Shown here: positions 2,439-22,709 of the stretch, in pieces
Layout of the letters: every line of letters starts with the position of its first letter
Position numbering within the stretch: the first letter of the stretch is position 1
Source of the DNA: an uncultured archaeon
GTDB lineage: Archaea; Iainarchaeota; Iainarchaeia; Iainarchaeales; DATDZZ01
Direction of reading: 5' to 3'
NCBI GenBank assembly: GCA_964373795.1
Contig: CAYJVY010000010.1
Coordinates: forward strand, 17,710 to 49,709
Length of the DNA: 32,000 bases
Made by a program: the position numbers and the translations under genes
Notes under the pieces: model-generated
Seen by the model: only the letters and a program-made list of their open reading frames with translations
Database searches by the model: none
What the model was told of the DNA's origin: nothing

Positions 2439-3197
2439 TTATACAGTAGATAGTTTTGAGTTGAGTTTGTTTAGCTTGTTTTTTGCAGTATTTAAATGCT
2501 TTTCAGTTTTTTGTTTTCCTATTGCAAAATTGTCAGCGTTTTTTTCTTCTTGACTAAATAATGATTTCATTTCAGAGAACGCAAATATTGGGGAAATTTT
2601 TGTTAAAAAAAATCCCAAAGACTTTATTTTAGGGGTTTTTGTTTTTATGTGGTATACTTCATGCAATATCACTGATTCTAGTTCTTTTCTTGATAAAAGC
2701 TCTAACAAACCAACAGAAAAAAATATCTTTGCATGAATTGAAGTACTAGAAAACGCTTTTGGAGATATGTCATCTATTAAGAAGATTTTTGGCATTTTCA
2801 TGCCTTCAATTCTTGTTATCTCTTTTATTTTTTCATACAAATCCCCTGAAACGACTTCAGTTGCTTTTAAAGAATACTGGTAAACAAGCGGGGCGACTAT
2901 ATAGCCTAAAATAATTGCCCCCAAAATTGAGACAGGTATTGCTGTCAAATAAGCTGAGGCCATGCATGCAAGAAATGAACCACACTTTAATGAGAACAAA
3001 AAGTAAAGAACTGGGAACACTATTGCGAAAATGTGTGCGTAAATCCAAAAGGTTTTATTAGCTGTTTCTTTTTTCCTGATTTTCCAAAAGGACACTCCTA
3101 AAAGTAGAAGAGATGTTCCAATTGTGAAAATCCCATCAATACTTGAAATGAATGCTGGAATGCATACAGTTGCCATACAAGTGAGATCGGTAAGCAT
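2439..3197 (-). CDS. Membrane zinc metallopeptidase, BlaR1/M56-like signal transducer without an extracellular sensor domain
   Basis: 252 aa. Several N-terminal TM helices, then an HExxH motif (VILHEVYHIK). Located 3 nt downstream of a BlaI-family repressor gene, the canonical BlaI-BlaR1 order. Confidence 0.7.
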   Translation of the reverse strand: MLTDLTCMATVCIPAFISSIDGIFTIGTSLLLLGVSFWKIRKKETANKTFWIYAHIFAIVFPVLYFLFSLKCGSFLACMASAYLTAIPVSILGAIILGYIVAPLVYQYSLKATEVVSGDLYEKIKEITRIEGMKMPKIFLIDDISPKAFSSTSIHAKIFFSVGLLELLSRKELESVILHEVYHIKTKTPKIKSLGFFLTKISPIFAFSEMKSLFSQEEKNADNFAIGKQKTEKHLNTAKNKLNKLNSKLSTV

Positions 3198-3200
3198 TTT

Positions 3201-3575
3201 TTAATCACTTTTTTCTCCAAATCTTTCATTAAAATATGCAATAGCTGTTGAACCAAATTTTTGAATCAATTTGTTGACACTTTTTTCTAAAACCCTTTTT
3301 TCAAATTTTTCTGGACTGATTTTCAATACGTAAGCATATCTATAGCCACCTCTGCAGTTTTCGATCTCTCTTTCAGTGAGCCCTTTTTTATGCAATCTAT
3401 CCAAAAACACTGATACAGTAGTAGGGGAAACTATTTTTTTGTTCCTTTTAAGGGCTTGATGAATATCTTTAGAAATTGATTTACCTTTTTTTCCAAGTAT
3501 ATATAAAATAGCTAACTCCAAATCACTTAAAGCGTCTTTTAATTCATTCTTTATTATGAAACTCTCTCTAATCAT
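3201..3575 (-). CDS. BlaI/MecI/CopY-family winged-helix repressor
   Basis: 124 aa. Motifs: LSDLELAILYILGKKGKSISKDIHQAL ... VSPTTVSVFLDRLHKKGL ... YRYAYVL. No C-terminal CxCxxxxCxC, so it is not a classical CopY metal site. Confidence 0.8.
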   Translation of the reverse strand: MIRESFIIKNELKDALSDLELAILYILGKKGKSISKDIHQALKRNKKIVSPTTVSVFLDRLHKKGLTEREIENCRGGYRYAYVLKISPEKFEKRVLEKSVNKLIQKFGSTAIAYFNERFGEKSD

Positions 3576-3685
3576 GGCATAAATATATTTCCCTAAACCT
3601 TATATAAACATGTCGACTTACACCAATGATTAAGTTTTACAAAAAATGGTAAAGCTTTTAAATAAGTTAGCATTCAAATATAATA

Positions 3686-5131
3686 ATGGTTGGAACAAAG
3701 TATTGCTCTATTTGCGGCCTAAAATCAAAAAAAGGCTTTGAAAAATTTGGTGAAGGCTTTTGCTCAAAAAAACATGCAAATGAATTTGTTCTACAAACCA
3801 GAAAACAAAAACTTGCAAAAGCAAATAGTGGGCAGTCAAGGAAAAAAAGTATTAGTGGTTTTAGTAATTTTTTTACGCCGCTAGAAAATTCTATCAACAT
3901 TTTGTTAAACGAGAAATATGCCAAAACTTTTTTTGTAGCTTTTTCTATTAGCCTGATTTTTTTTAGTTTCCTGAATGGATTGTTTCTAATTCCTTTTCTT
4001 GAAATAGGTTTTGGTAGAATGGCAGAAGTAACAGTTTTTGACTACCTTTATTTGACATTTTCTTCCATACTAATAGCTGTCCTTGTCAGCTTATTTTTTT
4101 ACCAGAGAAATGAGTTAACAAAAACCTTTGATTCTGGAAACCTGGTTGGAACTGGCTCAACTTCTTTGGCAGGATTTCTTGCAGCAATTTGCCCTGTATG
4201 TCAGTCAGTATCACTTGCAGCTTTTGGTGCAACTGTATTAGCTATTCCTTTAGGTCCACTCATTCCAGTTCTTGGCTTTTTAAAATTTTTTGGACTAGGC
4301 TTGCTAGGGTTAAGCGTTTACATTGTTTCCAATAATATTTATAAAAAAACCTGCACAGCTTGTGCCCCAGAGTCACTGCTTGTGGAAAAAAAATTAAGCA
4401 ATTCTTTTCTTGAAGAATTCTTCTTGAAAAACAATTGGGGATTTTCTTTGCTAGTTGTTTTTGGAGTCATTCTAGTATTAAATCAGTTTCTTTTAACCAA
4501 TGCTTTTTCAGGATTTGCTCCACAACCAGGAACTGCTGCATTCTTGACTGCTACTAATGCTATAACAGTTGACGCAAAAAGCGAGTTAAATTATGGGGCA
4601 AAAATTACTATAAAGCCAATGCCTTTAGCCGTGAATGAGGCATCTGCAATAGCTGGATACAAAACAAAAGTAAAATCATTGCCTACAATTAGTGAAATCG
4701 AGGTTACTCCTTCTACAGGTGATCTAACCCAAGATATTGCTAACAATGTAATACCTAAAGGAAAACCTTGGTATAGTGAAGAGACTGGAGGAATTAGTTT
4801 TGATGACGCAATAAAGGCTCAACAGCTTTGGGCTAGAGGAAGAGCAATTCAATTGAGTCCTGAAGAGCAAAAAAGATGGGACAAAATTGTAAATTCTTTT
4901 ACCTGTGATTATTGTTGTGGAAGTCCACAAAACCCCACAATTATTACAAGATGTGGTTGCGCTCATTCGTATGCAGCACAAGGAATGGCGAAATGGTTTA
5001 TAAAAAATTATGGTGACAAGTTCTCTGATGAAGAAATATATGGTGAAATGGCTAGATGGTATGCTTTATGGTATCCAGGGCCAACTGTTAAAAGAATTGT
5101 CCAAGAAATCCAATCACAGTCAAACATTTAA
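3686..5131 (+). CDS. Multidomain membrane protein: N-terminal TRASH-like zinc ribbon, TM region with intramembrane CPVC, C-terminal Cys-cluster domain
   Basis: 481 aa. The N-terminus CSICG-x15-FCSKKH resembles TRASH / zf-FCS. TM helices include GFLAAICPVCQSVSLAAFG. The C-terminal soluble domain carries CDYCCGS-x10-RCGCAHS. Confidence 0.7.
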   Translation: MVGTKYCSICGLKSKKGFEKFGEGFCSKKHANEFVLQTRKQKLAKANSGQSRKKSISGFSNFFTPLENSINILLNEKYAKTFFVAFSISLIFFSFLNGLFLIPFLEIGFGRMAEVTVFDYLYLTFSSILIAVLVSLFFYQRNELTKTFDSGNLVGTGSTSLAGFLAAICPVCQSVSLAAFGATVLAIPLGPLIPVLGFLKFFGLGLLGLSVYIVSNNIYKKTCTACAPESLLVEKKLSNSFLEEFFLKNNWGFSLLVVFGVILVLNQFLLTNAFSGFAPQPGTAAFLTATNAITVDAKSELNYGAKITIKPMPLAVNEASAIAGYKTKVKSLPTISEIEVTPSTGDLTQDIANNVIPKGKPWYSEETGGISFDDAIKAQQLWARGRAIQLSPEEQKRWDKIVNSFTCDYCCGSPQNPTIITRCGCAHSYAAQGMAKWFIKNYGDKFSDEEIYGEMARWYALWYPGPTVKRIVQEIQSQSNI

Positions 5132-5168
5132 TTCTAAAAAATGGTAAATAAAAAGGAGGGATTAAGTA

Positions 5169-5399
5169 ATGGCTTTGAAAACAGTATTGCTAGGCGCCTT
5201 GCTAGTAGTAATGGTTATAGTAGGATTGTTGCAAACAGTTCAAATACTTAACCTTAGCACTGCATTGAATTCAGGTGTTGGCTTGGTTACAGCAAAACCT
5301 GCTTCAATTAGTGTGGCTGGTGCAACAGCAAACAGTATAAAATCTACTGGTTCTGCAACTAGTTTGGATAACCTGCCTGGCATGGTTGGCGGATGTTGA
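5169..5399 (+). CDS. Small single-pass membrane protein ending in PGMVGGC, hypothetical
   Basis: AAGGAGGG at 5153-5160. 76 aa: an N-terminal TM helix (LLGALLVVMVIVGLL), a Ser/Ala/Thr/Gly-rich linker, and a terminal LPGMVGGC. Its stop codon overlaps the next gene start (ATGTTGA at 5393-5399). Confidence 0.6.
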   Translation: MALKTVLLGALLVVMVIVGLLQTVQILNLSTALNSGVGLVTAKPASISVAGATANSIKSTGSATSLDNLPGMVGGC

Positions 5400-6805
5400 A
5401 AATTTTTCGGGAAAACACAATGCAGAAGAATTTACTTATTAGTGGCGCATTAATAGCCTTGCTTATAATTGTTTTGTTTAACTCTTTGCAACTTACAGCT
5501 TTGGCTTCTCTAGCCAATGAAAAGACTGCAATAGCAAAAGAAAATTCGAGGCCTGGAAAAATTCAGTTAATAGAGTTGATTGTGCCATGCAGTGATTGCA
5601 TAGGCATTGATTCATTATTAGTTGATTTAAAAAAGCAAAACCTTGAAGTAGTTTCTGAAAAAAGGCTTGCCTCTAATTTGCCAGAGGCACAAAATTTAAT
5701 AAAAGAATTTGGTTTAACCAGGCTTCCAGCACTAATTGTTTTTGGTGAAACAACCAAGCAAAATCAGGTTAAAAGTTTTTTTGAAAAAAATGGTTTTAAA
5801 TTGAATGATTTAAATCAAGCGGTTTTTGAAACAAAAAAAGTGCCTTATTTTGATTTGAAAAATAATTCTGTTAGAGGAAGAGTATCAGTGGTTTCTTTGA
5901 CTGCAAAAGATTGCAGTAATTGTAGCTCTTTTGCAACGCTATTACCCTTGCTGAGAAACCGCGGAATAGTTTTTGATGAAGAAAAATTCTTGGAATTTAA
6001 TTCAAGTGAAGGAAAAGACTTTGTTCAAAAACATGGCTTGCAGAAAGTTCCAGCAATTTTTTTGTCAGAGAACATTCAAGAATACCCTGAAGTTTTTAAT
6101 GCATTAATTAATCAGCTTGGTTTCAAGCAAGGAAAAGGATATATTTTTCGTGAACCGCTTAGCGCGCCCTTTGTTGATGCTTTAAGTGGTGAAACAAAAG
6201 GATTAGTTAAAGCTATTTTTTTGGATGACTCTTCTTGCAATGATTGCTATGATGTGAATATGCATAAACAGATTTTTGACAGGTTTAAATTATTTTTAAA
6301 TGAAGAAGAAACAGTGGAAGTTTCTAGCGAGAAAGGGCAACAATTGATTAGTGATTACAATATTAGCAGAATTCCAACTGTGTTGCTTTCACCAGAAGCA
6401 AAAGAGTATCAAGAACTTGTGAATGTTTGGAGAGCTGTTGGAACAATTGAAGAGAATGATTGGTTTGTTTTTAGAGAGCCTAGTGCGTTATCTGGAGTTT
6501 ATATTGATTTGAATTTGAATTTAATTGTTAATCCAATACTTGTTCTTGGAGCAGAGTTTGAATTTCAGCCAAGCACAATTTCAGTTAAAAAAGGACAACT
6601 TGTTAAAATTACCTTTGTAAATGTTGGGCAAGCAGAGCATGATTTTGTAATTAATGAATTAAATATTAAAACAAAATTATTGAAACCTCAGGAAAGTGAA
6701 ACAATTGAATTCATTGCAGATAAAACCGGAGAGTTTTCTTTTTATTGTTCAGTGGAAGGCCATAAAGAACAGGGAATGAAAGGAACAATCATTATTTCGA
6801 AATAA
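5393..6805 (+). CDS. Membrane-anchored fusion of three thioredoxin-like CxxC modules and a C-terminal type-1 cupredoxin domain
   Basis: 470 aa with an N-terminal TM helix. Three modules each have a CxxC (CSDC, CSNC, CNDC) followed about 45-55 aa later by a cis-Pro-type strand (RLPALIVF, KVPAIFLS, RIPTVLLS). The C-terminus FVNVGQAEHDF ... FYCSVEGHKEQGMKG supplies the His/Cys/His/Met copper ligands. Alternative start at ATG 5420. Confidence 0.8.
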   Translation: MLKIFRENTMQKNLLISGALIALLIIVLFNSLQLTALASLANEKTAIAKENSRPGKIQLIELIVPCSDCIGIDSLLVDLKKQNLEVVSEKRLASNLPEAQNLIKEFGLTRLPALIVFGETTKQNQVKSFFEKNGFKLNDLNQAVFETKKVPYFDLKNNSVRGRVSVVSLTAKDCSNCSSFATLLPLLRNRGIVFDEEKFLEFNSSEGKDFVQKHGLQKVPAIFLSENIQEYPEVFNALINQLGFKQGKGYIFREPLSAPFVDALSGETKGLVKAIFLDDSSCNDCYDVNMHKQIFDRFKLFLNEEETVEVSSEKGQQLISDYNISRIPTVLLSPEAKEYQELVNVWRAVGTIEENDWFVFREPSALSGVYIDLNLNLIVNPILVLGAEFEFQPSTISVKKGQLVKITFVNVGQAEHDFVINELNIKTKLLKPQESETIEFIADKTGEFSFYCSVEGHKEQGMKGTIIISK

Positions 6806-6839: not shown

Positions 6840-7559
6840 TTGTTGGAAAAAGATAAGATTGTTCCAGCTATTTTTGGTTTTTTTTTAATAATTTTAATCA
6901 GTTTGTCTGTGTTTTTTGCATTACCTATGGTTTTTCCAAACAAAAGTAATTCTTCTGTTACATTTTCTTTTGCTGTTCTAAATTCAGATAATTTTTCTAA
7001 GAAGAATTTTACTGAATTTGATAGAAAGCTCGCTATCAAGTTAATGGATAAAGATGAAGATGGAAAATGTGATGCTTGCGGAATGAATGTAGAGTTGTGC
7101 ATGGATTCTGGACAAATAGAGTGTAACATGGTTCCTGGTGCTAAATTTGGAGTGCTTGGCTCTGCACACATCCATGCAAATTTTAAAGTTTTTTTGAATG
7201 GAAAAGAATTTGATTTTGGTCAACAAAAATATGCTGTGAAAAGCAGGTTTATGCATGTAGAAAATGATGTTCCAGAAGAGTTTGGAAAACTCTTACACAT
7301 TCATGCAACTGGCATGCCTTTGTGGCTGTTTTTTGAAAGCCTTGGAATGAAATTAAGCAAAGATTGTTTTGAATTGGATACTGGAGAAAATTTTTGCAGT
7401 AATTCAGATAATTCATTAAATTTTTATGTTAATGGTCAACCAAGTAATGAGTTTCAAGACTATGTCCCAAAAGACAAGGACAAGATTCTGATTAGTTTAT
7501 ATGGCAATGAAACAAATGACATAGGGAAACAATTAGAATCAATTACAAACTATTCTTAG
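6840..7559 (+). CDS. Membrane-anchored extracytoplasmic His/Cys-motif protein (paralog of 7564-8070), family not named
   Basis: 239 aa, TTG start. N-terminal TM helix. Cys4 cluster CDACG...C...C. Then HIHANFKVFLNGKE ... LHIHATG ... LFFESLG ... C...C ... FYVNGQ ... EFQDYVPKDKDKILI. Confidence 0.6.
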   Translation: MLEKDKIVPAIFGFFLIILISLSVFFALPMVFPNKSNSSVTFSFAVLNSDNFSKKNFTEFDRKLAIKLMDKDEDGKCDACGMNVELCMDSGQIECNMVPGAKFGVLGSAHIHANFKVFLNGKEFDFGQQKYAVKSRFMHVENDVPEEFGKLLHIHATGMPLWLFFESLGMKLSKDCFELDTGENFCSNSDNSLNFYVNGQPSNEFQDYVPKDKDKILISLYGNETNDIGKQLESITNYS

Positions 7560-7563
7560 GGAA

Positions 7564-8070
7564 ATGATTTTTATGAATTGGACAAATTTTTTTCTACTTT
7601 TTGCCATTGCTTTTTTGGTTTTTTTTGTTGGATGTGTTTCTGAGCAAAACAGCTTTGACTATCAAGAAGTTCCAAAAGAATTTGTTGTCCCAAAAAACTC
7701 AATCCACTGGCATCCCAAACTACAAATAAAAGTAAACAACCAGCTTCAACAAATCCCAACAGGTATTGGAATAAGCATAGGCAAAATGATTGATTTTGAT
7801 GTAAGTGGAATGAATATGTCTCCAATTCACACACATGAAGGCAATGGCACAATCCACATAGAAAACCAAAAGCCATGGCTAAAACCAGGAACTCTAACAC
7901 TAGGATACTTTTTTCATGTATGGAGCAAAAAATTTAGCAGTGAATGCATTTTTGACTACTGTAATAATGAAAAATCTAAAGTAAAAATGTTTGTCAATGG
8001 AAAAGAAAATCAAGAATTCGAAAAATATGTAATGCAGGACAAGGATGACATCTTGATTGTTTATGAATAA
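7564..8070 (+). CDS. Lipobox/TM-anchored extracytoplasmic His-motif protein (paralog of 6840-7559), family not named
   Basis: 168 aa. Signal peptide with FVGC. Motifs: HWHPKLQIKVNN ... SPIHTHEGNGTIHIE ... TLGYFFHVW ... C....C ... MFVNGKENQEFEKYVMQDKDDILIVYE. Same motif order as the upstream gene. Confidence 0.6.
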   Translation: MIFMNWTNFFLLFAIAFLVFFVGCVSEQNSFDYQEVPKEFVVPKNSIHWHPKLQIKVNNQLQQIPTGIGISIGKMIDFDVSGMNMSPIHTHEGNGTIHIENQKPWLKPGTLTLGYFFHVWSKKFSSECIFDYCNNEKSKVKMFVNGKENQEFEKYVMQDKDDILIVYE

Positions 8071-8494
8071 AAAAGAAATAAAACCTGAGAACAAGTTTAG
8101 TTTTTTAAGTAGTTTTTCTGGCGGGGCAAGCATTCTAAGCTCTTATCAAGTGTGTCATAATGTGTGCATGGGTTTAATTGGTTTGCTTTCATTAATTGGA
8201 ATTACACTTGTTGGAATGCCTTTGGCTTTTTTGTTACCATATACTGTGCCTTTTTGGGTTATTGGTACTGCTTTACTTGTAATTACTTTTTTTATTTACT
8301 TTAAAAAACCTAAATGTATGTCGAGAAATTTGCTGATATTTAATACAGGAATAATTATTGCTGCAATTCCTTTTAAGGAAGTTCAAGAATTCCAACCATT
8401 TTTTTGGGTAAGTGGAGGAATAATTATATTAATTGCAGTTTACAATTTTTTAAATAAAAAAATTTTGAAAAAGTTTATAAATAAAAACATCTAA
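8063..8494 (+). CDS. Four-helix membrane protein with intramembrane CHNVC motif, hypothetical
   Basis: ATG at 8063 overlaps the stop of the previous gene (8068-8070); the track start at 8057 is a TTG. FSGGASILSSYQVCHNVCMGLIGLL then MPLAFLLPYTVPFW, the same module layout as 9328-9753 and the TM core of 3686-5131. Confidence 0.6.
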   Translation: MNKKEIKPENKFSFLSSFSGGASILSSYQVCHNVCMGLIGLLSLIGITLVGMPLAFLLPYTVPFWVIGTALLVITFFIYFKKPKCMSRNLLIFNTGIIIAAIPFKEVQEFQPFFWVSGGIIILIAVYNFLNKKILKKFINKNI

Positions 8495-8625: not shown

Positions 8626-9189
8626 GTGGTACAATTGGATGAATTTAAATGTGAAGTTTGTGAAAGAATTTTTAAATATGAAGATGGTTTGGAATTGCAT
8701 AAACAAGCAAAACACTCAAAACCAGAAAAAAAAGAACCGTTAATTAAAATTTCAAGTGGACAAAAAAAGAAATTTATAAAAACTGCAATAGCTTTAGTTG
8801 TTTTAATTGCTGTAATTGGTTTTGTTTATTATATTATTACCATTCCGAAGGTGGTATTGCCACCAATTACTATACAAGGACATATTGAACAAAAGCCTTC
8901 AAGTCATATTTTAAAAGAACCAATGGAATTAAGAGTGCAAAAGCATATGTTAGAACATGCAGATGGAACTGGGCCTCCAGGAATAATAATAAATTATAAT
9001 TGTGAAGATTTTAACTGTGAACCGGATTTAATTTTAAATCTTGAAAAATTTGCAAAAAAGTATCCAGTAAATGTATATGTTGCGCCTTTTAATGGAATGA
9101 CTGAAAAAATAGTGTTAACAAAATTTCAAAAACTGCAAAAATTAGATAATTATGATGAAAAATTAATTGAAAATTTCATAAAAAATTAA
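8626..9189 (+). CDS. C2H2 zinc finger - TM helix - DUF3105-like extracytoplasmic domain protein
   Basis: 187 aa. The start is uncertain: GTG 8626 lies inside AAGGTGG, and TTG 8635 has better spacing. FKCEVCERIFKYEDGLELHKQAKH fits C-x2-C-x12-H-x4-H. TM helix AIALVVLIAVIGFVYYII. Then HMLEHADGTGPPGIIINYNC ... VYVAPFNGMTEKIVLT ... LIENFI, which matches my memory of DUF3105. Confidence 0.65.
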   Translation: MVQLDEFKCEVCERIFKYEDGLELHKQAKHSKPEKKEPLIKISSGQKKKFIKTAIALVVLIAVIGFVYYIITIPKVVLPPITIQGHIEQKPSSHILKEPMELRVQKHMLEHADGTGPPGIIINYNCEDFNCEPDLILNLEKFAKKYPVNVYVAPFNGMTEKIVLTKFQKLQKLDNYDEKLIENFIKN

Positions 9190-9327: not shown

Positions 9328-9753
9328 ATGGAAATTTTTCAATCTATTATCAAAAATTTTAGGATCCCTGGATTTTTGGCAAAATTTGTAATTTATAGTA
9401 TAGGGCTTTTTATAATATTGGGAATTCCCACAGCTCTTTTTCCTAATCCAATAATTCCATATACTAGAATGATTCCTTCAAATATTTTAGATTATGTTTT
9501 TTTATTCACTACAAGTGTTTTAGCAGGTTTTTACTTTGCATTGCCTAAAAGCAATGCATGCAATCCAAATAAAAGCGCTTTCGGTGGAGGAATTTTTGGA
9601 TTCCTTGCTTTTGCTTGTCCGACATGTATTCAGTTATTAGTGTTACTTTTTGGTTATGCGTTTTTGTTCAATATTTTAAATCCTTTAAGGCCGATTATTG
9701 GATTACTTTCAATTGGATTTTTGTTATTCGCAATTAGCAAAAAAATTCTTTAA
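9328..9753 (+). CDS. Four-helix membrane protein with intramembrane CPTC motif, hypothetical
   Basis: TTGGAG lies upstream of the ATG. 141 aa. FGGGIFGFLAFACPTCIQLLVLLFG then LNPLRPIIGLLSIGFLLFAI. Confidence 0.6.
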   Translation: MEIFQSIIKNFRIPGFLAKFVIYSIGLFIILGIPTALFPNPIIPYTRMIPSNILDYVFLFTTSVLAGFYFALPKSNACNPNKSAFGGGIFGFLAFACPTCIQLLVLLFGYAFLFNILNPLRPIIGLLSIGFLLFAISKKIL

Positions 9754-12828: not shown

Positions 12829-13245
12829 TTAATGTTTTTTGAATGTTTTGGCACAGTATTTACAACAAAAATTTGTTTTCCTTCCCTTAATTTTTTTTGT
12901 ATAGCGACTTTCAAAAACTTTACAACCGCAATGGACACAAACAGTCAATCTTGGAGAAATACTTAATTCAATTAACTCTCCAAATCTCGACAGAATTTTT
13001 TTAATAAACTTTTCTCCTTCTAAAGTTAATGAATAAACTTTTTTCTCTCTTTGCTTTTTTTCTTTTGAAACAATTAATTTATTTTTTTCAAGCAATGCAA
13101 GAAAAGGATATATTTGCCCCGGGGAAACTTTTTTCTCTGATTTTTCTGAAACTTTTTTAATTAATTCATATCCGTGCATAGATTTTGAGTTTAACAGCAT
13201 TAGAGCATAAAATTTAGTTAAATTGTCTATTTTTATTTTATCCAT
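12829..13245 (-). CDS. PadR-family winged-helix regulator fused to a C-terminal TRASH metal-binding domain
   Basis: 138 aa. PadR core: ALMLLNSKSMHGYELIKKV ... SPGQIYPFLALLEKNKLI ... KVYSLTLEGEKF. C-terminus: CVHCGC-x19-FCCKYCAKTF (TRASH: Cys pair ... C-x3-C). Divergent from copA. Confidence 0.8.
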   Translation of the reverse strand: MDKIKIDNLTKFYALMLLNSKSMHGYELIKKVSEKSEKKVSPGQIYPFLALLEKNKLIVSKEKKQREKKVYSLTLEGEKFIKKILSRFGELIELSISPRLTVCVHCGCKVFESRYTKKIKGRKTNFCCKYCAKTFKKH

Positions 13246-13300: not shown

Positions 13301-13590
13301 TTATGATATTATAAGTGTCACTTAAAAAATTAATGTGTATATTTAGAGGAAGTAATCCTATTGATTGTCATTAAAAAAAATAAAGTTGAAAAATTTAAAG
13401 TGCATTCTCTGGGCGGGCCAATTTAGAGGCGTTTAATTGACAAATGAATTAAATATAAAAGCATTGGATTGTGCAGTAATTGCTGCAGGATTAATTGCGT
13501 GGGTTTACAATTTTTCTTTGAAAAAATTTAGTTAGTTTTGAATTCATTAAATTTTTAAACAACAAAAGTACTGTATTAATGAGGTTTAAT

Positions 13591-16248
13591 ATGGCAAAAG
13601 ATCCAAATTGTGGAATGACTGTGGATGAAAAAAAAGCAAAGTTTGTTTCCAATAAAGGTGGAAAGAAAACTTATTTTTGTTCATTAAATTGTTTGAAGAC
13701 TTTCGAATCCAAACATGGTTCGAAAGCTTCTTCCGCAAAAACTACAAAAATGCCAGAAAAAATAGCGCTTAAAAATTCAAAAATTGAAGGCACTAATTCG
13801 AAACTTATTTCAATTACTGGAATGCATTGTGCTTCTTGTTCTCAAACAATTGAAAAAGCATTAACAAAACTGCCAGGAGTTGTTTCTGCTAATGTTAATT
13901 TTGCTTCTTCTAAAGCATTAGTGAAATACGATGCAAGTAAAGTTGGGGAAAAAGAATTTTTTTCCGCAGTTGAAAAATCAGGATATGGGGTAGTTAAAGA
14001 AGAATTTGGTGGAGAAGGAAAAGAGATTTTAGCAAAGATTGATATAATTGGAATGAGTTCACAACATTGTGTTGGAGTTGTAGAACAAACCCTGCATAAA
14101 TTACATGGATTAGACAATATAAAAGTTAATCTTGGAACACAAACAGCAGAATTCCTTTATAATAAAGAGAAAATTTCTTTGCAGGAAATAATTTCTGCAA
14201 TAAAGAATTCTGGATATGAGGCAAGAATTGCTTTGCCTGAAGATAAGGAAAAAATCGCTCGCGAAAAAGAAATTCAGGAATACAAATTCAAATTCGTGGT
14301 TTCTTTTTTGCTTTCTGCTCCTTTGATGATTTTCGCAATAGGCCCGGCAGTAGGAATTGTTTTGCCTGAATTTATTAAGCAAAACTTTTTAGCAATTCAA
14401 TTTCTTTTAGCAACTCCTGTAATTCTTATAGGTTACAAATTTTTCACAAACGGTTTCAGAGCTCTTTTCATTAACAGAATTCCAAACATGGATTCTTTGG
14501 TTGCATTAGGAGTAGGAGCCGCTTATGTTTGGAGTATTTTTTCTTCTCTGCAAATTCTTTCTGAAATTCCAGGATTTGGAGTGGACTCATTATATTATGA
14601 AATATCTGCATTTTTGTTGACATTCATCATTTTAGGAAAATATTTGGAAGCAGTTGCAAAAGGCAAAACTTCTGAAGCAATCAAAAAACTTTTAGGCTTG
14701 AAGCCAAAAACTGCTTTTGTTGAACGCGCAGGAAAAGAATTGGAAATTCAAATTGACGAGGTTCTAATAGGAGATATTGTAATAGTAAAACCTGGACAAA
14801 AAATTCCAGTTGATGGAACAGTTGTTTCTGGAGACAGTTATGTTGATGAATCAATGATTTCAGGAGAACCATTGCCTGTGCACAAAATTGTTGGCAGTAA
14901 AGTAATTGGTGCAACAATTAACAAACAAGGTTTTTTCAAATTTCGTGCAGAAAAAGTTGGCAGTGAAACAATGTTGGCTCACATTATTAGAATGGTTGAA
15001 GAAGCTCAAGGCTCTAAAGCTCCAATTCAAGAATTTGCTGACAGAATTTCTTCATGGTTTGTTCCAGTAGTTATTGCTTTAGCAATTATTTCTTCTCTTG
15101 CATGGCTTTTAGTTGGCCAGCCTTTTTTGTTTGTTTTACAAATATTTATTACTGTTTTAATTATTGCTTGTCCTTGTGCTTTAGGTTTAGCTACTCCTAC
15201 TGCTGTAATGGTTGGCACTGGTTTAGGAGCTCAAAATGGAATTTTATTCAAATCAGCTGCTTCTTTGCAGAAAGCCCATGAAGTTCAAACAATTGTTTTT
15301 GATAAGACTGGCACGCTTACAAAAGGCAAGCCAGAAGTAACAAATATTGTTTCAGTGAATGGAAAAAAAGATTTAGATGTTTTAAGTTTTGCAGCTATTG
15401 CTGAAAAAAATTCAGAGCATCCATTAGCTGAAGCAATTTTAAACAAAGCTAATTCTTTAAAGTTAAAAGTTGTTTCTCCAAAAAATTTTGAAGCAGTTTC
15501 AGGTAAAGGAGTTAATGCTTTTTTTAAGGGAACAAAAATTCTTGTAGGAAATAAAAAATTTTTTTTAGAGCAAAAAATTTCTTTTAAAGAACTTGAAGAA
15601 AAAATTTTTGCGCTGGAATTAGAAGCAAAAACAGTTGTATTAATTGCAGTTAATGGAAAGCTTTTAGGTGCAATAGCTATTGCTGATTCTTTAAAGGATT
15701 TCTCTAAAGAAGCTGTTCAAGAACTTCATAATTTAGGAAAAGAGATTGTAATGATTACTGGAGACAATAAGACTACTGCTGAAGCAATTGCTAAACAAGT
15801 AGGCATTGATTTTGTTTTAGCAGAGGTTTTACCCGAACAGAAAGCTCAAAAAGTTAAAGAACTTCAGTCTTCGGGAAAAAAGGTTGCATTTGTTGGAGAC
15901 GGAATTAACGATGCCCCTGCATTAGCTCAATCAGATGTTGGAATTGCAATTGGTTCTGGAACTGATATTGCAATTGAAGCAGGAGAAATTGTTTTAATTA
16001 AAAATGATTTAAGAGATGTTGTTACAGCAATTGATTTATCTGCTTACACTATTAGAAAGATTAAGCAAAACTTTTTTTGGGCATTTATTTACAATGTTGC
16101 TGGTCTTCCATTAGCTGCAGGAATTTTATATCCTTTAATTGGATGGCTTTTAAATCCAGTTATTGCTGGAATTGCAATGGCTTTTTCCTCTGTATCAGTT
16201 GTATCCAATACCTTGCTAATGAAGGGCTTTAAGCCTAGAATAAAGTGA
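13591..16248 (+). CDS. copA: Cu(I)-translocating P1B-type ATPase
   Basis: GAGG at 13581-13584 favours ATG 13591 over ATG 13579. N-terminal TRASH/YHS-like CGM-x20-FCSLNC. HMA 1 has GMHCASC; HMA 2 is degenerate (GMSSQHC). Also [44 protein letters not shown]. Confidence 0.95.
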
Positions 16249-17711: not shown

Positions 17712-20700
17712 TTATTTGCATTGGAAATTGTCATATGTTTCATATTTTGGAGGGTAAGAGGTTATTATACTTCCATCGCTTCCAACAATTGTTGCCATGA
17801 ATTTTGCTCCAATTTTTAGTAAATAGCACTCTTTTGGAGGTTTTCCGTCAATTGTTTTGCCTAGCAATTTTTTTCCAGGATTTTTAATTGACTCAAATAT
17901 TTTAGACTGAATTATTTCGTTGTCATTTAGCCCAATTTTTGCAAAATCTCCACTATCAACATGTTTTGTTTTTATGTGTTGCCAGCCCTTGTATTGGTTT
18001 CCTTCTTCTAGCCATTTTATTTGTTTGCCTGAGTCTTCTGCTACATTAATTGTTTTTTTCAAGTCGCCTCCTTTTTCTAGAACTGTTTCCATGTTTTTTA
18101 CTGGAACATTTTTTGTGTTCTTTAATCTATTTATTGCTTCGACTCCATCGTCTCCGTAATGCTTTAACAAATTCGGCAACGCATCAATTGTTTCTTTTTT
18201 TGCTCCTCTTTCGAATAGTATTCCTAGATTTTTTAATTCCTTTAACTGTGTTTTGTTAAACGTTCTAGTAATAGTACTTTTCACTCCTTTTGTTACTACT
18301 TCAAAAGTGATTTTTGCTTTTTTTGCGATTTTAACTAGATTTTCAACAGCATTTGCTATCTTGCTTAATTTGTACCATTTTTTTGCAGAATCTAAGACTC
18401 TGACTGTTTTTACACTAGCGATTCCAAAATCTACTAAAGGGCCATCAGCTGGAACTATTATTGCTATAACATTTCCAACACTTAAAAGTGTATCCACTAA
18501 TCCCCATATAGTCCATTCTCCTCTACACCAATCTCCAAAAGCAAATTCGCAAGCAATATTGAATCCAAGATCCGCAAAAGTCTTATCTGCGTTATCCTCT
18601 AATTCCAGTATTTCAACATCAATTGTTGATACAGTTCCATCTGGCAACAAATTATTTTCACTGCCATTAAGCACAGCAAAAGATGTTCCGCCAAATTGTT
18701 TGCTTAAATATTGTGTTCCATCCATTACTCCGTCTCCGTCAGAGTCTTTTTTTATAGGATTTGTTCGTGTAACAGTTGTTTCCTCTAAATCTGTTAAACC
18801 ATCGTTATCTGTGTCTTCTTTGAATGCATTTGTTCCATAAACTTTTAATTCATGATAGTCATCTAAACCATCATCATCTGAATCTTTTTTGTTTGGATCT
18901 GATCTTAATGCATAATAGTTTCCGCCGATTGGTAGAATTGTTACTTCTCCCATTTCAAATCCATCGCTTACTCCGTCTCCATCAGAATCATATTTTTGTG
19001 GATCTGTGTAAATGTATTTGAATGTTCCTGTTCGCATTCCACTTGATTCTTCATTATTTGTTAATCCATCTCCATCTGAATCTGGGGCTATTAAAATGCT
19101 TTTACAAGCAGAATTATCGAATTCGCTTGATTCTGCAATTACGTTGTCTGGATCTAGTACTAGGCAAACTCTTTCAACTCCGTATTCTGCATACCAAGTT
19201 ATTTGTGTTAGCCTCATGCTGTTGCCTGCAATGCTTGAAATTGTTGTTGAAGAAATCTCTGTTCCAGTAGAGTTATTTCTTCTAAATGAAACTTTTACAT
19301 TGTTTGCTGTTTCAGTGTCGTTGTTTCTTATATTTGCTTTTATTTTAATTGCATTGCCAGATAAGTATGTGTTTTGGAAATCAATTATTCCATTCCATGT
19401 TTTTCCATATGGATTGGAATTTGACAAAAAATAACTGCTAAAATGAGTTGTTTTTCCCCAGACGTATTTTTCTGTGGAGTTTATTCCTTGAATTTCTAAT
19501 GGTTTGAAAACCATTTTTTCTTCGTCTAAATAATAAAGCCTTAATTCGTTTGATTGTAAGCCTTTTAATTCTTCTTCTGTGTAATAGAATCTCATTTCTG
19601 CTTCATTGAATGAGTTATTACCTTTAATGTTAAATTTTGCTCCTTTGATTAAAGTAGTTGTATCAACTGTTGAAGGCAAATCAGTTGGATCTTCAACTAT
19701 CGAGATTTTTTTCCTCAAGTCTCCTTTTCCTGTGACAATTAGTTTTGTGTCTTGGCTTTGTGTTGGAATTTCTTGAATAAATATTTCTTGCCCATCTGGA
19801 ATTCCATCATTATCTGAATCATTTGTTAAAATATTTGTGCCAAAAGAGATTTCTGCTTCGTCATTTAATCCGTCTCCATCTGAATCTTTTGAAATTGGAT
19901 TTGAATGAAGTTCATTTATTTCTTTGTAGTCTGTTATTCCATCAAAATCAGAATCGTTTGTGTCAGGATTTGTTCCAAAATTAAATTCCTGTAATGCTGT
20001 CAAACCATCTCCATCCAAATCAATTAATGCATCACTTGAAATTGAATCTGTTGAAGTTTGATTTGGATTTGTTCCTTGAATAAATGCTTCAAAATAATCA
20101 TTTAATCCATCTCCATCCGAGTCAGCATTAAATGGATTTGTTTTTCCTTTGAATTCCTCTAAATTATTTAATTTGTCGCCATCAAAGTCTTCATCTGCAT
20201 CACTTACGCCATCAAAATCAGAGTCTTTTAGTAATGGGTTTGTAAGTAAAACATTTTTTTCATAGTCTTCTGGAAGAGTGTCCCCATCAAGCAAAAATGT
20301 TTTTTCCCATGTAGATTCATTTCCCGCAATATCTCTTGCAATAATTTTGTATTGGTTTTCTCCAAGGATAAACTTTGAATTGAATACAAACAAACCATTT
20401 TCATCAACATTTAAAGTTAAATTGTTTAACGTGACATAAATTCCTGGCTCTGTTTCTCCTATTATCAAGTACTCTGATTCCTCTATTGTTGTATCTGTAA
20501 TAGAGTCATTAATTGAAAGCATTGGAGGGGTATTGTCAATGATTATTTGTGTTGATTTTTCCGCTGTATTTCCTGCCTTGTCTTCTGCTGTTATTTTTAA
20601 TTCGTGTGAACCGTCTTCAAATTCTGTTGTGTTTAAATTGAATGGTAGTATTGAGTTTAAAAAATTTGAATCTAAAAATACTTGGAGTTGTTTCAAGTTT

Positions 20701-22709
20701 TTTTCTATTATGTTTGCGTTCACGGAAACAATTTGCCTTAAATGGCTTCCAGTGCTTGGATTAATGTTTTCAATTTTTGGAGGAGTGTTGTCAAATTCTA
20801 CTTGAGTTGTTTTTTCGTTTTCGTTCCCTGCTTTGTCGTTTGCATAATATTTTATTTCATGCAATCCGTCAGCGTACTTTGTAGAGTCAACTTGGTAAGG
20901 CAAATGATTTGATATCTGCAGACCATCTATGAAGAGTTTTGTTAAATCTAAGTACAAGTCGTAAGTGCTTCCAAGTACATCAAATACCCCTCGCAGAAAT
21001 GCTCCTGTCAAAGGATAAGTAATTTCAATGCTTGGAGGAGTTTTGTCTATTACGAAACTCACTTGCTTTGTTGCAGTGTTTCCTGCTTTATCTGTTGAAG
21101 AAACTAAAAGCAAGTGCTCGAATTCTGTTGAAATAATTTCTCCCAAAACATATGCTTGGTTGTTGAGTAAAAAAGTATTCGTGTCAGGGTTTAGTTCTAC
21201 TACATTAATTAATGGAAGCACGTTTGAATTGTAGAATTTTCCTTCTTCTATTCCTGTAATAAATATTTTTGGAAGAGTGTTGTCGACTGTTACTTGAATT
21301 GTTGTTGTGTTAGTGTTTCCTGCTAGGTCTTTTGCAAATAAAAGAATTTCATGTAATCCATCTGATGCTTCATTTAAAGTGTTCCAGTTAAAGGAATTAT
21401 TTTGAGTTTTTGCTTGGCCATCTATTCTCCATTCAAGAAAATTAAAGTATTTATCTGTTGCAGTGCCTGAAACACTAATGTTTTGTCTCAAGAAAGAATT
21501 GTGCAGAGGAGAAATTATTTTTACTTCTGGAGGAGTTTTATCTATTGCAAATTTGTATTCTAGAATCGATTCGTTTCCTGCTAAGTCTTTTGCTGTTGCG
21601 CGTAAAATATATTCGTTTTCATTAGAGACCTTGGATCCTGAAACAAATTCTGCAGAATTCAAAGTTGTTTGTGTTTCACTTAAATGCTTGTCTATGATTA
21701 AAATTTCAGGATTCAAATCATAATTGTAGTAAGAATTGTTTTCTACTCCTAAAAATTCAATTTTTGGAGGAGTAATGTCTAAAACTATTTCAATGCTTTC
21801 ACTTTTCCCTGTATTGCCGAATCTGTCAGTTGAAAAAACAGTAACTAAATTATTTCCATCTACTAATGGAACAGTTCCAGAATAAACCCCGCTAATCAAA
21901 GGGAACTCGTAATTTGAGTCATTCACTTGAACTACAACTGAATTAATTGTCTGCAATTGTACATCCCAAACAGTTCCAGAAACTGTTTGCATTTCTTGGT
22001 TTGTGTAAATGTTTGTTTGCGGAGATGAAATAAAAACTAAAGGAATTGTGAATTCATCTAGTAAGCTTAGGCCAGCAAATCCTTCAATCCAGGAGTTCTT
22101 GAAGTGTTCTATTGAATTAGGCGAGTTACCTATGTTCAACTGGTGTTGTGCCTTGTCATAGCTTTCTTTTGCTTTCTGTAAATGGTTTGAAGCCTGCAGG
22201 AAAACGTTTTCATCTTCTATTTCTGGTAGAACCTTTTCAATTACTTCAATCAAGTTTTTGGAAATATTTTGATCTGCTTGTACAAGCCTACTTATTGCAA
22301 ACAATAGTTTGTTGTTATCCAGATTAGAGCTCTCCCTATTGTAAAGAGTTCTTATGAAATTTCCTGCTTTTTTTTCGAAAACAAAAACATTTGCATCCAA
22401 AATCAAGTCTTGCGTAATCCAGAATTCTGGTTTAAGGCTTGCCTCGACATTTGAATCTGCTTGCAAAAGCTTGTCAAGATCGTCTTCAACTGCTTCTGGA
22501 ATCAGTTCCTGTAAAAAACTTCTTGCTTGATTTTTCAACTCAAAAGGAGTCAAGTTTTCTTGTGTAAAAACCAATTCTGTGTCATTCAAATTATTCTGTG
22601 CATTCCCGGCTGCAAAAGCGCTGGAGAAGAATACAGTTATGAATAGCAAAACACAAATGCTTTGCCAAAACTTTTTTTCCACACGCATAAATATCATCTT
22701 TCTATCCAA
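17712..22709 (-). CDS. Giant secreted/anchored surface protein: Ig-like repeat array, TSP3-like Ca-binding repeats, CARDB-like domain, pre-toxin-like segment and short variable C-terminal tip (polymorphic-toxin-like)
   Basis: 1665 aa with an N-terminal hydrophobic signal (ICVLLFITVFFSSAFA). At least six repeats of about 95 aa, of the form (I/V)DKTPP ... DGLHE ... (A/T)KD(L/K)AGN ... DNTPP. Two blocks of D-x-D-x-DG-x-x-D repeats (DSDGDGLND, DSDFDGITD, DTDNDGLTD). ANIRNNDTETANNVKVSF looks CARDB-like. Hydrophobic WGLVDTLLSVGNVIAIIVPADGPLVDFG. The last 96 aa start at GNQYKGWQHIKTKH. Confidence 0.85.
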   Translation of the reverse strand: MDRKMIFMRVEKKFWQSICVLLFITVFFSSAFAAGNAQNNLNDTELVFTQENLTPFELKNQARSFLQELIPEAVEDDLDKLLQADSNVEASLKPEFWITQDLILDANVFVFEKKAGNFIRTLYNRESSNLDNNKLLFAISRLVQADQNISKNLIEVIEKVLPEIEDENVFLQASNHLQKAKESYDKAQHQLNIGNSPNSIEHFKNSWIEGFAGLSLLDEFTIPLVFISSPQTNIYTNQEMQTVSGTVWDVQLQTINSVVVQVNDSNYEFPLISGVYSGTVPLVDGNNLVTVFSTDRFGNTGKSESIEIVLDITPPKIEFLGVENNSYYNYDLNPEILIIDKHLSETQTTLNSAEFVSGSKVSNENEYILRATAKDLAGNESILEYKFAIDKTPPEVKIISPLHNSFLRQNISVSGTATDKYFNFLEWRIDGQAKTQNNSFNWNTLNEASDGLHEILLFAKDLAGNTNTTTIQVTVDNTLPKIFITGIEEGKFYNSNVLPLINVVELNPDTNTFLLNNQAYVLGEIISTEFEHLLLVSSTDKAGNTATKQVSFVIDKTPPSIEITYPLTGAFLRGVFDVLGSTYDLYLDLTKLFIDGLQISNHLPYQVDSTKYADGLHEIKYYANDKAGNENEKTTQVEFDNTPPKIENINPSTGSHLRQIVSVNANIIEKNLKQLQVFLDSNFLNSILPFNLNTTEFEDGSHELKITAEDKAGNTAEKSTQIIIDNTPPMLSINDSITDTTIEESEYLIIGETEPGIYVTLNNLTLNVDENGLFVFNSKFILGENQYKIIARDIAGNESTWEKTFLLDGDTLPEDYEKNVLLTNPLLKDSDFDGVSDADEDFDGDKLNNLEEFKGKTNPFNADSDGDGLNDYFEAFIQGTNPNQTSTDSISSDALIDLDGDGLTALQEFNFGTNPDTNDSDFDGITDYKEINELHSNPISKDSDGDGLNDEAEISFGTNILTNDSDNDGIPDGQEIFIQEIPTQSQDTKLIVTGKGDLRKKISIVEDPTDLPSTVDTTTLIKGAKFNIKGNNSFNEAEMRFYYTEEELKGLQSNELRLYYLDEEKMVFKPLEIQGINSTEKYVWGKTTHFSSYFLSNSNPYGKTWNGIIDFQNTYLSGNAIKIKANIRNNDTETANNVKVSFRRNNSTGTEISSTTISSIAGNSMRLTQITWYAEYGVERVCLVLDPDNVIAESSEFDNSACKSILIAPDSDGDGLTNNEESSGMRTGTFKYIYTDPQKYDSDGDGVSDGFEMGEVTILPIGGNYYALRSDPNKKDSDDDGLDDYHELKVYGTNAFKEDTDNDGLTDLEETTVTRTNPIKKDSDGDGVMDGTQYLSKQFGGTSFAVLNGSENNLLPDGTVSTIDVEILELEDNADKTFADLGFNIACEFAFGDWCRGEWTIWGLVDTLLSVGNVIAIIVPADGPLVDFGIASVKTVRVLDSAKKWYKLSKIANAVENLVKIAKKAKITFEVVTKGVKSTITRTFNKTQLKELKNLGILFERGAKKETIDALPNLLKHYGDDGVEAINRLKNTKNVPVKNMETVLEKGGDLKKTINVAEDSGKQIKWLEEGNQYKGWQHIKTKHVDSGDFAKIGLNDNEIIQSKIFESIKNPGKKLLGKTIDGKPPKECYLLKIGAKFMATIVGSDGSIITSYPPKYETYDNFQCK
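17999..18069. repeat. 71-nt near-identical direct repeat, copy B (partner 16807-16877)
   Basis: Lies inside the giant gene and encodes GDLKKTINVAEDSGKQIKWLEEG, immediately before the 96-aa C-terminal tip. Confidence 0.9.

Follow-up and report, generated by a model that had tools for sequence, protein, structure and literature searches.

In a 32,000-nucleotide (nt) stretch of contig CAYJVY010000010.1 from an uncultured archaeon of the Iainarchaeota (the window), gene B codes for a 76-amino-acid (aa) membrane-tethered peptide whose only cysteine is its last residue. Judged by its sequence, B belongs to a new family, defined here by the C-terminal tail LPxMVGGC. The family is carried by more than 100 species genomes, almost all of them of DPANN archaea or of bacteria of the candidate phyla radiation (CPR). 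Its genes lie in a conserved module, A-B-C, which is limited to these two groups; the coordinates of A, B, C and their neighbors in the window are collected in Table 1. We see about even chances that B serves as the tethered one-thiol arm of a thiol relay outside the cytoplasm, in a copper-stress neighborhood. The module's physiological role probably lies in the redox upkeep of envelope thiols and copper sites.

Read from its ATG start, the gene B product is MALKTVLLGALLVVMVIVGLLQTVQILNLSTALNSGVGLVTAKPASISVAGATANSIKSTGSATSLDNLPGMVGGC. It begins with MALK and leads through a hydrophobic helix and a Ser/Ala/Thr/Gly-rich stretch to LPGMVGGC. AlphaFold2 (AF2), run with 18 homologues, predicted a single continuous helix over residues 2 to 34 with a predicted local distance difference test score (pLDDT) of 87 to 96, and disorder in the remainder (pLDDT, 42 to 66). 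According to this model, the helix would cross the membrane and run about 12 residues further with a conserved Gln, before a disordered tether of about 35 residues. Both the open reading frame (ORF) and the model match the original prediction for this locus, a transmembrane (TM) helix with a flexible linker and a Cys at the very end only. Because a conserved Lys precedes the helix and the neighboring proteins are anchored alike, we infer a cytoplasmic N terminus and a tail on the outer face of the membrane.

An ORF this short with a low-complexity middle could be spurious or noncoding, and a first word-indexed protein search with B returned nothing besides B itself. However, this explanation is hardly conceivable, given that gene B has a strong Shine-Dalgarno (SD) sequence and more than 100 syntenic homologues, that its product combines an invariant C terminus with a variable linker, and that gene callers predict it. 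Furthermore, a protein identical to B is present in two other assemblies. We take B to be a genuine, translated small membrane protein. The original prediction also had B translationally coupled to the downstream gene C by a stop/start overlap. The overlap itself stands: the TGA of B overlaps an in-frame ATG at 5393, which arises because the Gly75-Cys76 codons GGA-TGT create it. The claim of coupling is weak; what is established is the tight linkage of the two genes. On an identical contig, the gene caller starts gene C at the ATG at 5420, 20 nt past the B stop codon, and a convincing SD sequence was found for neither candidate start (5393 or 5420). The start at 5420 is the more likely one. 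More generally, GGA-TGY (Gly-Cys) codons yield an ATG 7 nt before the end of the B stop codon (5391-5399 in the window), and in six other loci the longest downstream ORF likewise begins at such an ATG, with a -7 overlap. This may mislead start calls for gene C.

Because the word-indexed search had returned only B, an exhaustive phmmer search with B was needed and was run against 1.84 billion representative proteins. It detected 17 small proteins (66 to 133 aa; E = 3e-7 to 9e-4), all 17 with the same architecture and the MVGGC end. Q22, M72, V73, G74, G75 and C76 were invariant among them, and Q22 was also invariant in a 21-sequence alignment. In addition, all three gene C homologues examined (32 to 34% identity) were preceded by a small ORF ending in MVGGC, which at one of these loci reads AAMVGGC, with no LP. 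No match to B was found in Pfam, NCBIfam or PADLOC, and a PDB sequence search with a B profile was empty. A full-text literature search for "MVGGC" gave unrelated acronyms only, and we found no published description of A or B; a search of the literature on disulfide bond formation in DPANN and Patescibacteria found nothing relevant.

The extent of the family was analyzed by a DNA pattern scan for L-P-x-M-V-G-G-C-stop in one genome per species (185,579 species), which gave at least 120 stretches. Among the matches listed, about 105 to 110 are genuine ends of A or B proteins, and nearly all lie in Woese-, Nano-, Aenigmat- or Micrarchaeota or in CPR bacteria (Paceibacterota, Magasanikbacteria, Uhrbacteria). 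About 10 listed matches in other phyla (Paenibacillus, Planctomicrobium, Rubrivivax and others) were all non-ORFs, having TGG at the stop position or lying in a 5-aa ORF, and act as an internal negative control. A further set of 80 metagenome loci was found solely via protein A motifs, and 72 of them had enough downstream sequence. A small TM ORF ending in MVGGC directly followed A in 44 of these 72, and three further loci held two distinct B-like ORFs with variant ends, MVGSC (L153/L165) and LQSMVGGC (L154). Other rare variants were IPxMVGGC, also in the A-anchored set, and MQGGC in one locus of the pattern set (L057). In the motif-independent sets M, V, G, G and C were invariant, and L and P were conserved at 90% or more. 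The original prediction had staked its proposal on conservation of the terminal motif, and with a motif invariant across more than 100 genomes the proposal clearly withstands this check. Many metagenome-assembled genomes titled "uncultured Methanosarcinales archaeon" (L011, L016, L022, L031, L033 and others) carry the module, with B genes much like the woesearchaeotal ones; these record labels are probably placeholders or errors.

Pattern-derived loci usually had two MVGGC ends, 200 to 900 bp apart, the first belonging to A and the second to B, with C next. In a census of about 105 such loci among the matches listed, B was present in 105, C in 82 and A in 101, including 78 A proteins with the tail. 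A-B-C was the dominant gene order, with short intergenic gaps, and we regard the association of B with A and C as obligate. The original prediction had described the downstream neighbor as a protein with three CxxC motifs and a blue-copper domain, and the window C protein was confirmed to have thioredoxin (Trx)-like regions and a cupredoxin domain (Pfam Cupredoxin_1, E = 8.9e-14; PDB matches to copper nitrite reductase and nitrosocyanin). Three CxxC motifs at a spacing of about 100 aa were present in 65 of 94 C proteins, their inner dipeptide being variable and often acidic. A type-1-copper-like C…H…M near the C terminus was found in about 14 of the 94, window C included. The cupredoxin is an accessory feature of C.

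Proteins of family A are 200 to 460 aa long; the TM anchor has LFNQxQ at its end, and the domain that it tethers is extracytoplasmic. This domain had 173 detectable homologues; among the 120 matches listed, all are unnamed or "hypothetical protein" and without a Pfam domain. FTCDYCCGSP…PTII…CGCxH is invariant among the homologues, and the domain is 60 to 77% identical among the closest DPANN homologues of the window. The nearest relatives of the window genes are labeled Woesearchaeota, Aenigmarchaeota or other DPANN. No match to A was found in Pfam, NCBIfam or PADLOC, and a PDB sequence search with an A profile was empty. In the AF2 model of A (P0134; mean pLDDT, 88), a domain of five helices is accompanied by a TM helix and a small beta element. 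When this model was compared with the PDB by Foldseek, the best E was 0.7 and template modeling scores stayed below 0.2, with no match to Erv/ALR, DsbB or VKOR folds. Going by the model, A appears to have a new type of Cys5His fold outside the cytoplasm. The N-terminal finger of window A is putatively TRASH-like; Pfam gave no call for it.

Most A proteins carry the same LPxMVGGC tail as B. With its like anchor and identical tail, B looks like an A protein stripped of the globular domain. On tailed A proteins, AF2 modeled the tail with a pLDDT of 71 to 77, versus 45 for the disordered linker of A, which is weakly suggestive of docking in cis; the B tail modeled alone had a pLDDT of 50 to 55.

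Across 104 distinct B sequences, the linker is 24 to 83 aa long (median, 35) and consists of S (23%), A (12%), G (12%) and T (7%) in the main. Exactly one Cys is present from the TM helix onward in 103 of 103 family members. The helix continues into a juxtamembrane motif, V-Q-(A/T)-(V/F/I)-Q-L-x-x-L-K, in which Q is found in 94 of 104 sequences at the position of Q22, and Q (88/104) and L (84/104) at the next two motif positions. P-S-(S/N)-(L/I)-(Q/D)-(N/D) is favored immediately before LPxMVGGC. Window B has all the family features: the Q-x-x-Q-L anchor, the S/T/A/G linker, the LPxMVGGC end with a single terminal Cys, and a place between A and C. The B linkers of L052, L065, L068 and L108 carry a Met/His-rich insert, ETYEEMMARMHPDQ or AEYEKMMDEMHPGW (with a related EKMMYEHHG in L108), which is reminiscent of copper-binding sequences.

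The residues V-Q-(A/T) ahead of the conserved Q-L (V, 66; Q, 94; A, 73 or T, 20 of 104) fit the -3/-1 rule of signal peptidase I. If a Sec signal were cleaved past them, B would be a secreted, soluble, Ser/Thr-rich peptide of about 50 aa with a terminal thiol, either similar to ribosomally synthesized and posttranslationally modified peptides (RiPPs) or a diffusible thiol or copper ligand. We regard such a product as very unlikely. The residues behind the site are themselves conserved (the Q and L just mentioned, a further L, and K), and in the AF2 model they continue the same helix. Moreover, the anchors of A and C end in related N/Q motifs that are unfit for cleavage, and no maturase or exporter genes are conserved nearby; a cluster of a RiPP maturase (such as radical SAM, YcaO or LanM) with an exporter or protease was absent from the census loci. 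Unlike a RiPP precursor, B also shares its tail with a 200- to 460-aa protein, A.

That one motif ends two different extracytoplasmic proteins might point instead to a C-terminal sorting or modification signal, used for cleavage, lipidation, or attachment to the wall or surface layer, with a noncatalytic Cys. Like the sortase signal LPXTG, PGF-CTERM and GlyGly-CTERM, it is a short conserved C-terminal motif of surface proteins, it starts with LP-x as LPXTG does, and invariance over eight residues is typical of enzyme recognition sites. However, the stop codon directly follows the B Cys in all members, whereas LPXTG, PGF-CTERM, PEP-CTERM and GlyGly-CTERM are followed by a hydrophobic segment and basic tail. 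Furthermore, no sortase-, archaeosortase- or rhombosortase-like gene was found among the conserved neighbors within about 8 kb, the same motif occurs in archaea and bacteria despite their differing envelopes, and B is already held by its N-terminal helix. A sorting signal is therefore quite unlikely. Three other kinds of terminal processing were set aside: cleavage of a double-glycine leader because it would release the lone Cys, ubiquitin-like activation of the GG because the tail is extracytoplasmic and there is no ATP there, and CaaX-type prenylation because no aaX follows the Cys. The AF2 model of B contains no ThiS/MoaD/SAMP beta-grasp, and no E1-like or JAMM gene was found among the conserved neighbors.

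Two architectures became apparent when 169 A-containing loci were compared. In 45 loci, as in the window, a tail-less A is fused to a module of four TM helices with a CPxCQ motif; none of these A proteins has the tail, CcdA is nearby in 1, a stand-alone CPxCQ module in 6, and B is present in 36. In 84 loci, A has a single TM helix and the tail; here CcdA is nearby in 47, a stand-alone CPxCQ module in none, and B is present in 80. The remaining 40 loci, with A neither fused nor tailed, have CcdA nearby in 6, a stand-alone CPxCQ module in 14 and B in 36. The difference in CcdA between tailed-A and fused-A loci (47/84 versus 1/45) was highly significant (Fisher p = 1e-10), although the counts are phylogenetically nonindependent, because the two A types are subfamilies. 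In the census, DsbD_TM/CcdA was present in 42 loci (confirmed by Pfam, E = 2.7e-14), and 11 more loci had a CcdA-like second cluster, assigned from its sequence with no Pfam match. CcdA is a membrane electron transporter that supplies extracytoplasmic Trx-like proteins (PMC3322552). The mutual exclusivity of CcdA and the CPxCQ module thus fits two alternative entry points into one pathway, and it is the main reason for ranking a thiol relay above pure metal trafficking.

The CPxCQ module, fused or stand-alone, has CPxCQ in its third TM helix and K-T-C-x-x-C after its fourth; it may be a new membrane conduit for thiols or metals. That it is a diverged CcdA was rejected at the sequence level (hhalign probability 0.2).

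In the relay that we propose, reducing equivalents would enter through the membrane module, that is, through CcdA in genomes with tailed A or through the A-fused four-TM CPxCQ module in the window type. The terminal Cys of B would form transient mixed disulfides with the Cys cluster of A (CxxCC, CGC and His) and with the CxxC sites of C, and possibly also exchange with A's own tail or with a second B. LP-x-MV-GG would be a docking motif in which Gly-Gly gives the Cys reach into the partner's active site, and the A domain would be the most likely receptor of the B tail. Working in this way, the module would maintain copper sites and the thiols of the envelope in the reduced state during copper or oxidative stress. 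The original prediction had weighed several roles for a tethered terminal thiol beside a CxxC protein; such a thiol fits all the findings and its neighborhood favors the carrier arm among those roles, but the upstream partner A had been overlooked.

Two observations bear on the docking step. First, the non-ligand tail residues L, P, V, G and G are conserved as strongly as M and C, which argues for a docking motif recognized by a protein over a bare metal-binding tail. Second, the A domain is much better conserved than C: over one shared set of 102 loci, its median identity to the window reached 63%, versus 32.5% for C, and A was the higher in 84 of 102. The simplest explanation of a peptide that does not vary is a receptor that does not vary either, which makes A the likelier docking partner. 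Overall, we consider upstream A at least as likely a partner of B as the gene C product.

Several points weigh against a thiol relay. We infer its individual steps, its reducing or oxidizing direction and the identity of the protein that receives the tail. A lone Cys cannot cycle unaided and would need a partner thiol (the A tail, another B, the A cluster or C). In the window, A is tail-less and CcdA is missing, so a relay there rests on the uncharacterized CPxCQ module, which has no detectable homology to CcdA. The complementarity of CcdA and CPxCQ partly tracks subfamily phylogeny, and the moderate pLDDT of the A tail may just reflect that the tail is invariant in the alignment. Moreover, copper genes abound in the neighborhood, with cupredoxins, a CopA, Met-rich proteins and fingers that are putatively TRASH-like, and the invariant Met four residues ahead of the Cys fits Cu(I) ligation equally well.

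B might then be an arm that captures Cu(I) or another thiophilic metal at the membrane surface through Met72 and Cys76, perhaps of two arms, and hands it on. The copper route would run between the Cys5His domain of A and the CxxC and cupredoxin sites of C, for detoxification or for the loading of copper proteins. In addition to the Met-Cys spacing, the window offers the cupredoxin on C, an apparent P1B-type ATPase (CopA by its sequence; 13579-16248), a Met-rich protein (50-280) and putative TRASH-like CxxC…FCSxxH fingers on A and CopA, which were read by motif and received no Pfam call. Elsewhere, 14 loci have CuA-type cupredoxins and 9 have CopA, a multicopper oxidase and HMA proteins lie near L005/L006, Met-rich and DGxCDxCGM proteins directly follow A in window-type loci, and the linker insert of L052, L065, L068 and L108 reads YEEMMxxMHP. 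There is also a precedent, as Scs proteins bind Cu(I) besides having an oxidoreductase role (PMC10907172, PMC8900818). Nevertheless, we rate the copper arm, the main rival of the relay, as unlikely. The invariance of the non-ligand residues is unusual for a simple metal tail and points to protein recognition; the strongest conserved partner beyond A-B-C is CcdA, known as an electron rather than a metal transporter; a cupredoxin is present on just about 15% of C proteins; and many core-module loci have no recognizable copper gene within 8 kb.

A broader reading gives DPANN and CPR organisms a distinctive redox machinery outside the cytoplasm, with B as a protein-borne cofactor, which would either substitute for a low-molecular-weight thiol such as glutathione or supply the missing half of a split CxxC. 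It would serve both A and C and be fed by CcdA or by the CPxCQ module as an unrecognized conduit. One report describes CPR and DPANN organisms as lacking electron transport chains (PMC7507113). We put the cofactor reading forward tentatively, as a possibility that we would on balance doubt, and the relay with a one-thiol arm remains our preferred interpretation.

Among known systems, mobile terminal segments that shuttle a redox Cys between an occluded active-site Cys pair and external partners are found in sulfhydryl oxidases and sulfur-transfer proteins, as in Erv2 (the C-terminal CGC tail) and DsrC (the C-terminal arm). Those tails are part of the enzyme and have two Cys residues (in DsrC one penultimate and one upstream), whereas B is a separate gene product with one. 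A thioredoxin fold with CxxC is present in C but not in B, which has a single Cys and a helix only. There was no match of B to HMA, and its one Cys does not make the MxCxxC of the ferredoxin-like HMA/CopZ domain.

The copper-induced ScsABCD system of Salmonella is similar in that a membrane electron transporter of the DsbD_TM family is combined with membrane-tethered Trx-like proteins and with ScsA, a small membrane protein without an assigned role, and both systems have a genetic link to copper and redox stress (PMC10907172, PMC3322552). DsbD and ScsB are electron hubs that feed Trx-like proteins in copper stress (PMC3322552, PMC10907172). However, ScsA has a CxxC (CLAC) and a peroxidase-like signature (PMC10907172), whereas B has one terminal Cys and no homology to it. 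Furthermore, the Cys5His protein A has no Scs counterpart, C is a triple Trx-like protein, and the window type has the unrelated four-TM CPxCQ module in the place of CcdA.

Alongside ScsABCD, the nearest working analogue is SoxY of the Sox sulfur-oxidation pathway. B resembles its carrier arm, a lone Gly-flanked Cys on a flexible, extracytoplasmic C-terminal end, which in SoxY carries covalent adducts and is visited by several enzymes (PMC5336275). Carrier-arm cysteines of SoxY can cross-link mutually (PMC5336275). In contrast to B, for which AF2 predicts a helix and a disordered tether, SoxY is a folded beta-sandwich that acts with SoxZ; SoxY ends in GGCGG and B in MVGGC-COOH, and the hosts of the B family are DPANN and CPR. 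No Pfam SoxY match was obtained for B, and neither sox genes nor SoxZ were found in the neighbor census.

A second family with a tethered cysteine was noted in other loci. It comprises lipoproteins of 55 to 75 aa (L-x-G-C lipobox), often with a Gln-rich stretch, in which (Y)VGGGCGV occurs internally or GGGCG(G) forms the C-terminal end, resembling SoxY (L017:4505-4705, L030:2725-2937, L048:4985-5176, L006:5073-5246, L044:781-948 and about 18 more; none in the window). The gene usually lies directly after B, and in tailed-A loci only (23/84 versus 0/45 fused-A loci).

Table 1. Features of the module and its neighbors in the window
Feature	Position	Strand	Basis and remarks
M48/M56 (BlaR1-like) membrane zinc protease paired with the repressor	2439-3197	-	Pfam PF01435, E = 2.4e-06; 22 loci
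BlaI/Penicillinase_R-type repressor, divergent from A-B-C	3201-3575	-	Pfam PF03965, E = 4.7e-11; 23 of ~105 loci
Gene A, 481 aa, no MVGGC tail	3686-5131	+	ORF list, homologues, model
A, cytoplasmic CxxC…FCSxxH finger	3704-3775	+	Sequence reading
A, four-TM module; CPVCQ in third helix (4190-4204)	3866-4370	+	Module conserved
A, CTAC (K-T-C-x-x-C right after fourth helix)	4352-4363	+	
A, fifth TM helix with NQ motif	4442-4495	+	
A, extracytoplasmic Cys5His domain; FTCDYCCGS (4898-4924), CGCAH (4952-4966)	4586-5128	+	
SD-like AAGGAGG, 9 nt 5' of gene B ATG	5153-5159	+	Read from sequence
Gene B, 76-aa membrane-tethered single-cysteine peptide	5169-5399	+	ORF list; family by phmmer, synteny, DNA pattern
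B residues 1-34, predicted signal anchor (N-in) and juxtamembrane helix, Q-x-x-Q-L motif	5169-5270	+	AF2, alignments
B residues 35-68, predicted disordered Ser/Ala/Gly/Thr-rich tether	5271-5372	+	pLDDT 42-66
B residues 69-76, LPGMVGGC with the only Cys	5373-5396	+	TGA (5397-5399) directly after
Gene C, 461 aa, TM anchor (alternative ATG 5393)	5420-6805	+	Pfam, NCBIfam, PDB sequence matches, homologues, gene call
C, thioredoxin-like units: CSDC, CSNC, CNDC	5588-5599, 5912-5923, 6236-6247	+	
C, type-1 cupredoxin site C-x4-H-x4-M	6746-6778	+	
Two paralogous His-motif proteins, same operon (first with DGKCDACGM)	6840-7559, 7564-8070	+	BLAST relatives in 32-33 loci
145-aa membrane protein, CHNVC; weak relative of CPxCQ module	8057-8494	+	12-16 loci; E = 2.7e-4 versus hidden Markov model (HMM) of the module
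Stand-alone four-TM CPxC module paralogue (FACPTC)	9328-9753	+	hmmsearch E = 2.3e-10 versus module HMM

Beyond A-B-C and CcdA, the census found a zinc-finger/TM/His-motif family in 38 loci (in the window, the genes starting at 6840, 7564 and 8626) and a putative VKOR-type Trx-like domain protein, recognized by eye with no Pfam match, in 25. The three window members (the third at 8626-9189) are paralogous membrane-anchored proteins with H-x-H…H-(T/I)-H motifs, possibly for metal binding. One has DGKCDACGM and one a C2H2 zinc finger with a weak DUF3105 match; relatives occur in about 38 loci. The DGKCDACGM-type motif is enriched in window-type loci.

As for regulation, a BlaI-type palindromic operator was sought in the intergenic region 3576-3685 between the repressor gene and A, and nothing convincing was found. 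In 17 loci there are membrane-bound winged-helix regulators with an extracytoplasmic C-xn-C loop. These MarR/TrmB-like proteins (DUF7343; L011:2082-2585, L012:6270-6773 and 15 others) have two TM helices around a C-x5-6-C loop, adjoin A-B-C, and are candidate sensors of envelope redox or metals.

Elsewhere in the window (31% G+C), the Met-rich protein at its start is 76 aa long, reads MPMMGLRSMMGF…GMMGNL…GMMN and has a C-terminal TM helix; its motifs look Cu(I)-binding. In L180 and L181, the gene after A codes for a longer relative with this C-terminal anchor. A 138-aa PadR-type-like regulator (12829-13245, minus strand) has a Cys-rich tail, CVHCGC…FCCKYCAKTF, which appears TRASH-like, and relatives in four loci. 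It lies upstream of the P1B-type ATPase gene, which is on the opposite (plus) strand and encodes an apparently TRASH-like finger at the N terminus. Further on, a 1,665-aa secreted protein (17712-22709, minus strand), which contains numerous repeated domains as well as DxDxDG repeats of a calcium-binding-like kind, and a 414-aa Cys-rich secreted protein (22694-23938, minus strand) may be surface or adhesion proteins of an episymbiont. Archaeal GatE, read from the ORF translation, is encoded at 29311-31209; together with the DPANN labels of the nearest relatives, it assigns the window to a DPANN archaeon.

DPANN and CPR make up a large share of microbial diversity, are host-attached, and have an envelope biochemistry that is almost unknown. 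The module is present in more than 100 of their species genomes, yet all three core proteins are functionally unannotated, and A and B match no described family. Proteins of the size of B are often missed or ignored by gene callers and annotation pipelines; with LPxMVGGC-stop after a Q-x-x-Q-L anchor, the family is simple to annotate, and the 12-residue tail of B, SLDNLPGMVGGC, is a short synthetic peptide that experimenters can use. The module reuses Trx-like domains and CcdA, and its new parts are the Cys5His domain without a match in the PDB and the stand-alone tethered monothiol. If the arm is a redox or copper shuttle, these organisms would manage surface thiols and copper perhaps without the usual DsbB or VKOR (no search of the genomes for dsbB or VKOR was made), and the stand-alone tethered monothiol would be a new type of carrier. 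That the module embodies a new principle is less likely than not, though a realistic prospect; if B indeed acts as a cofactor, disulfide and copper homeostasis on the surface of episymbiont cells would follow a new principle.

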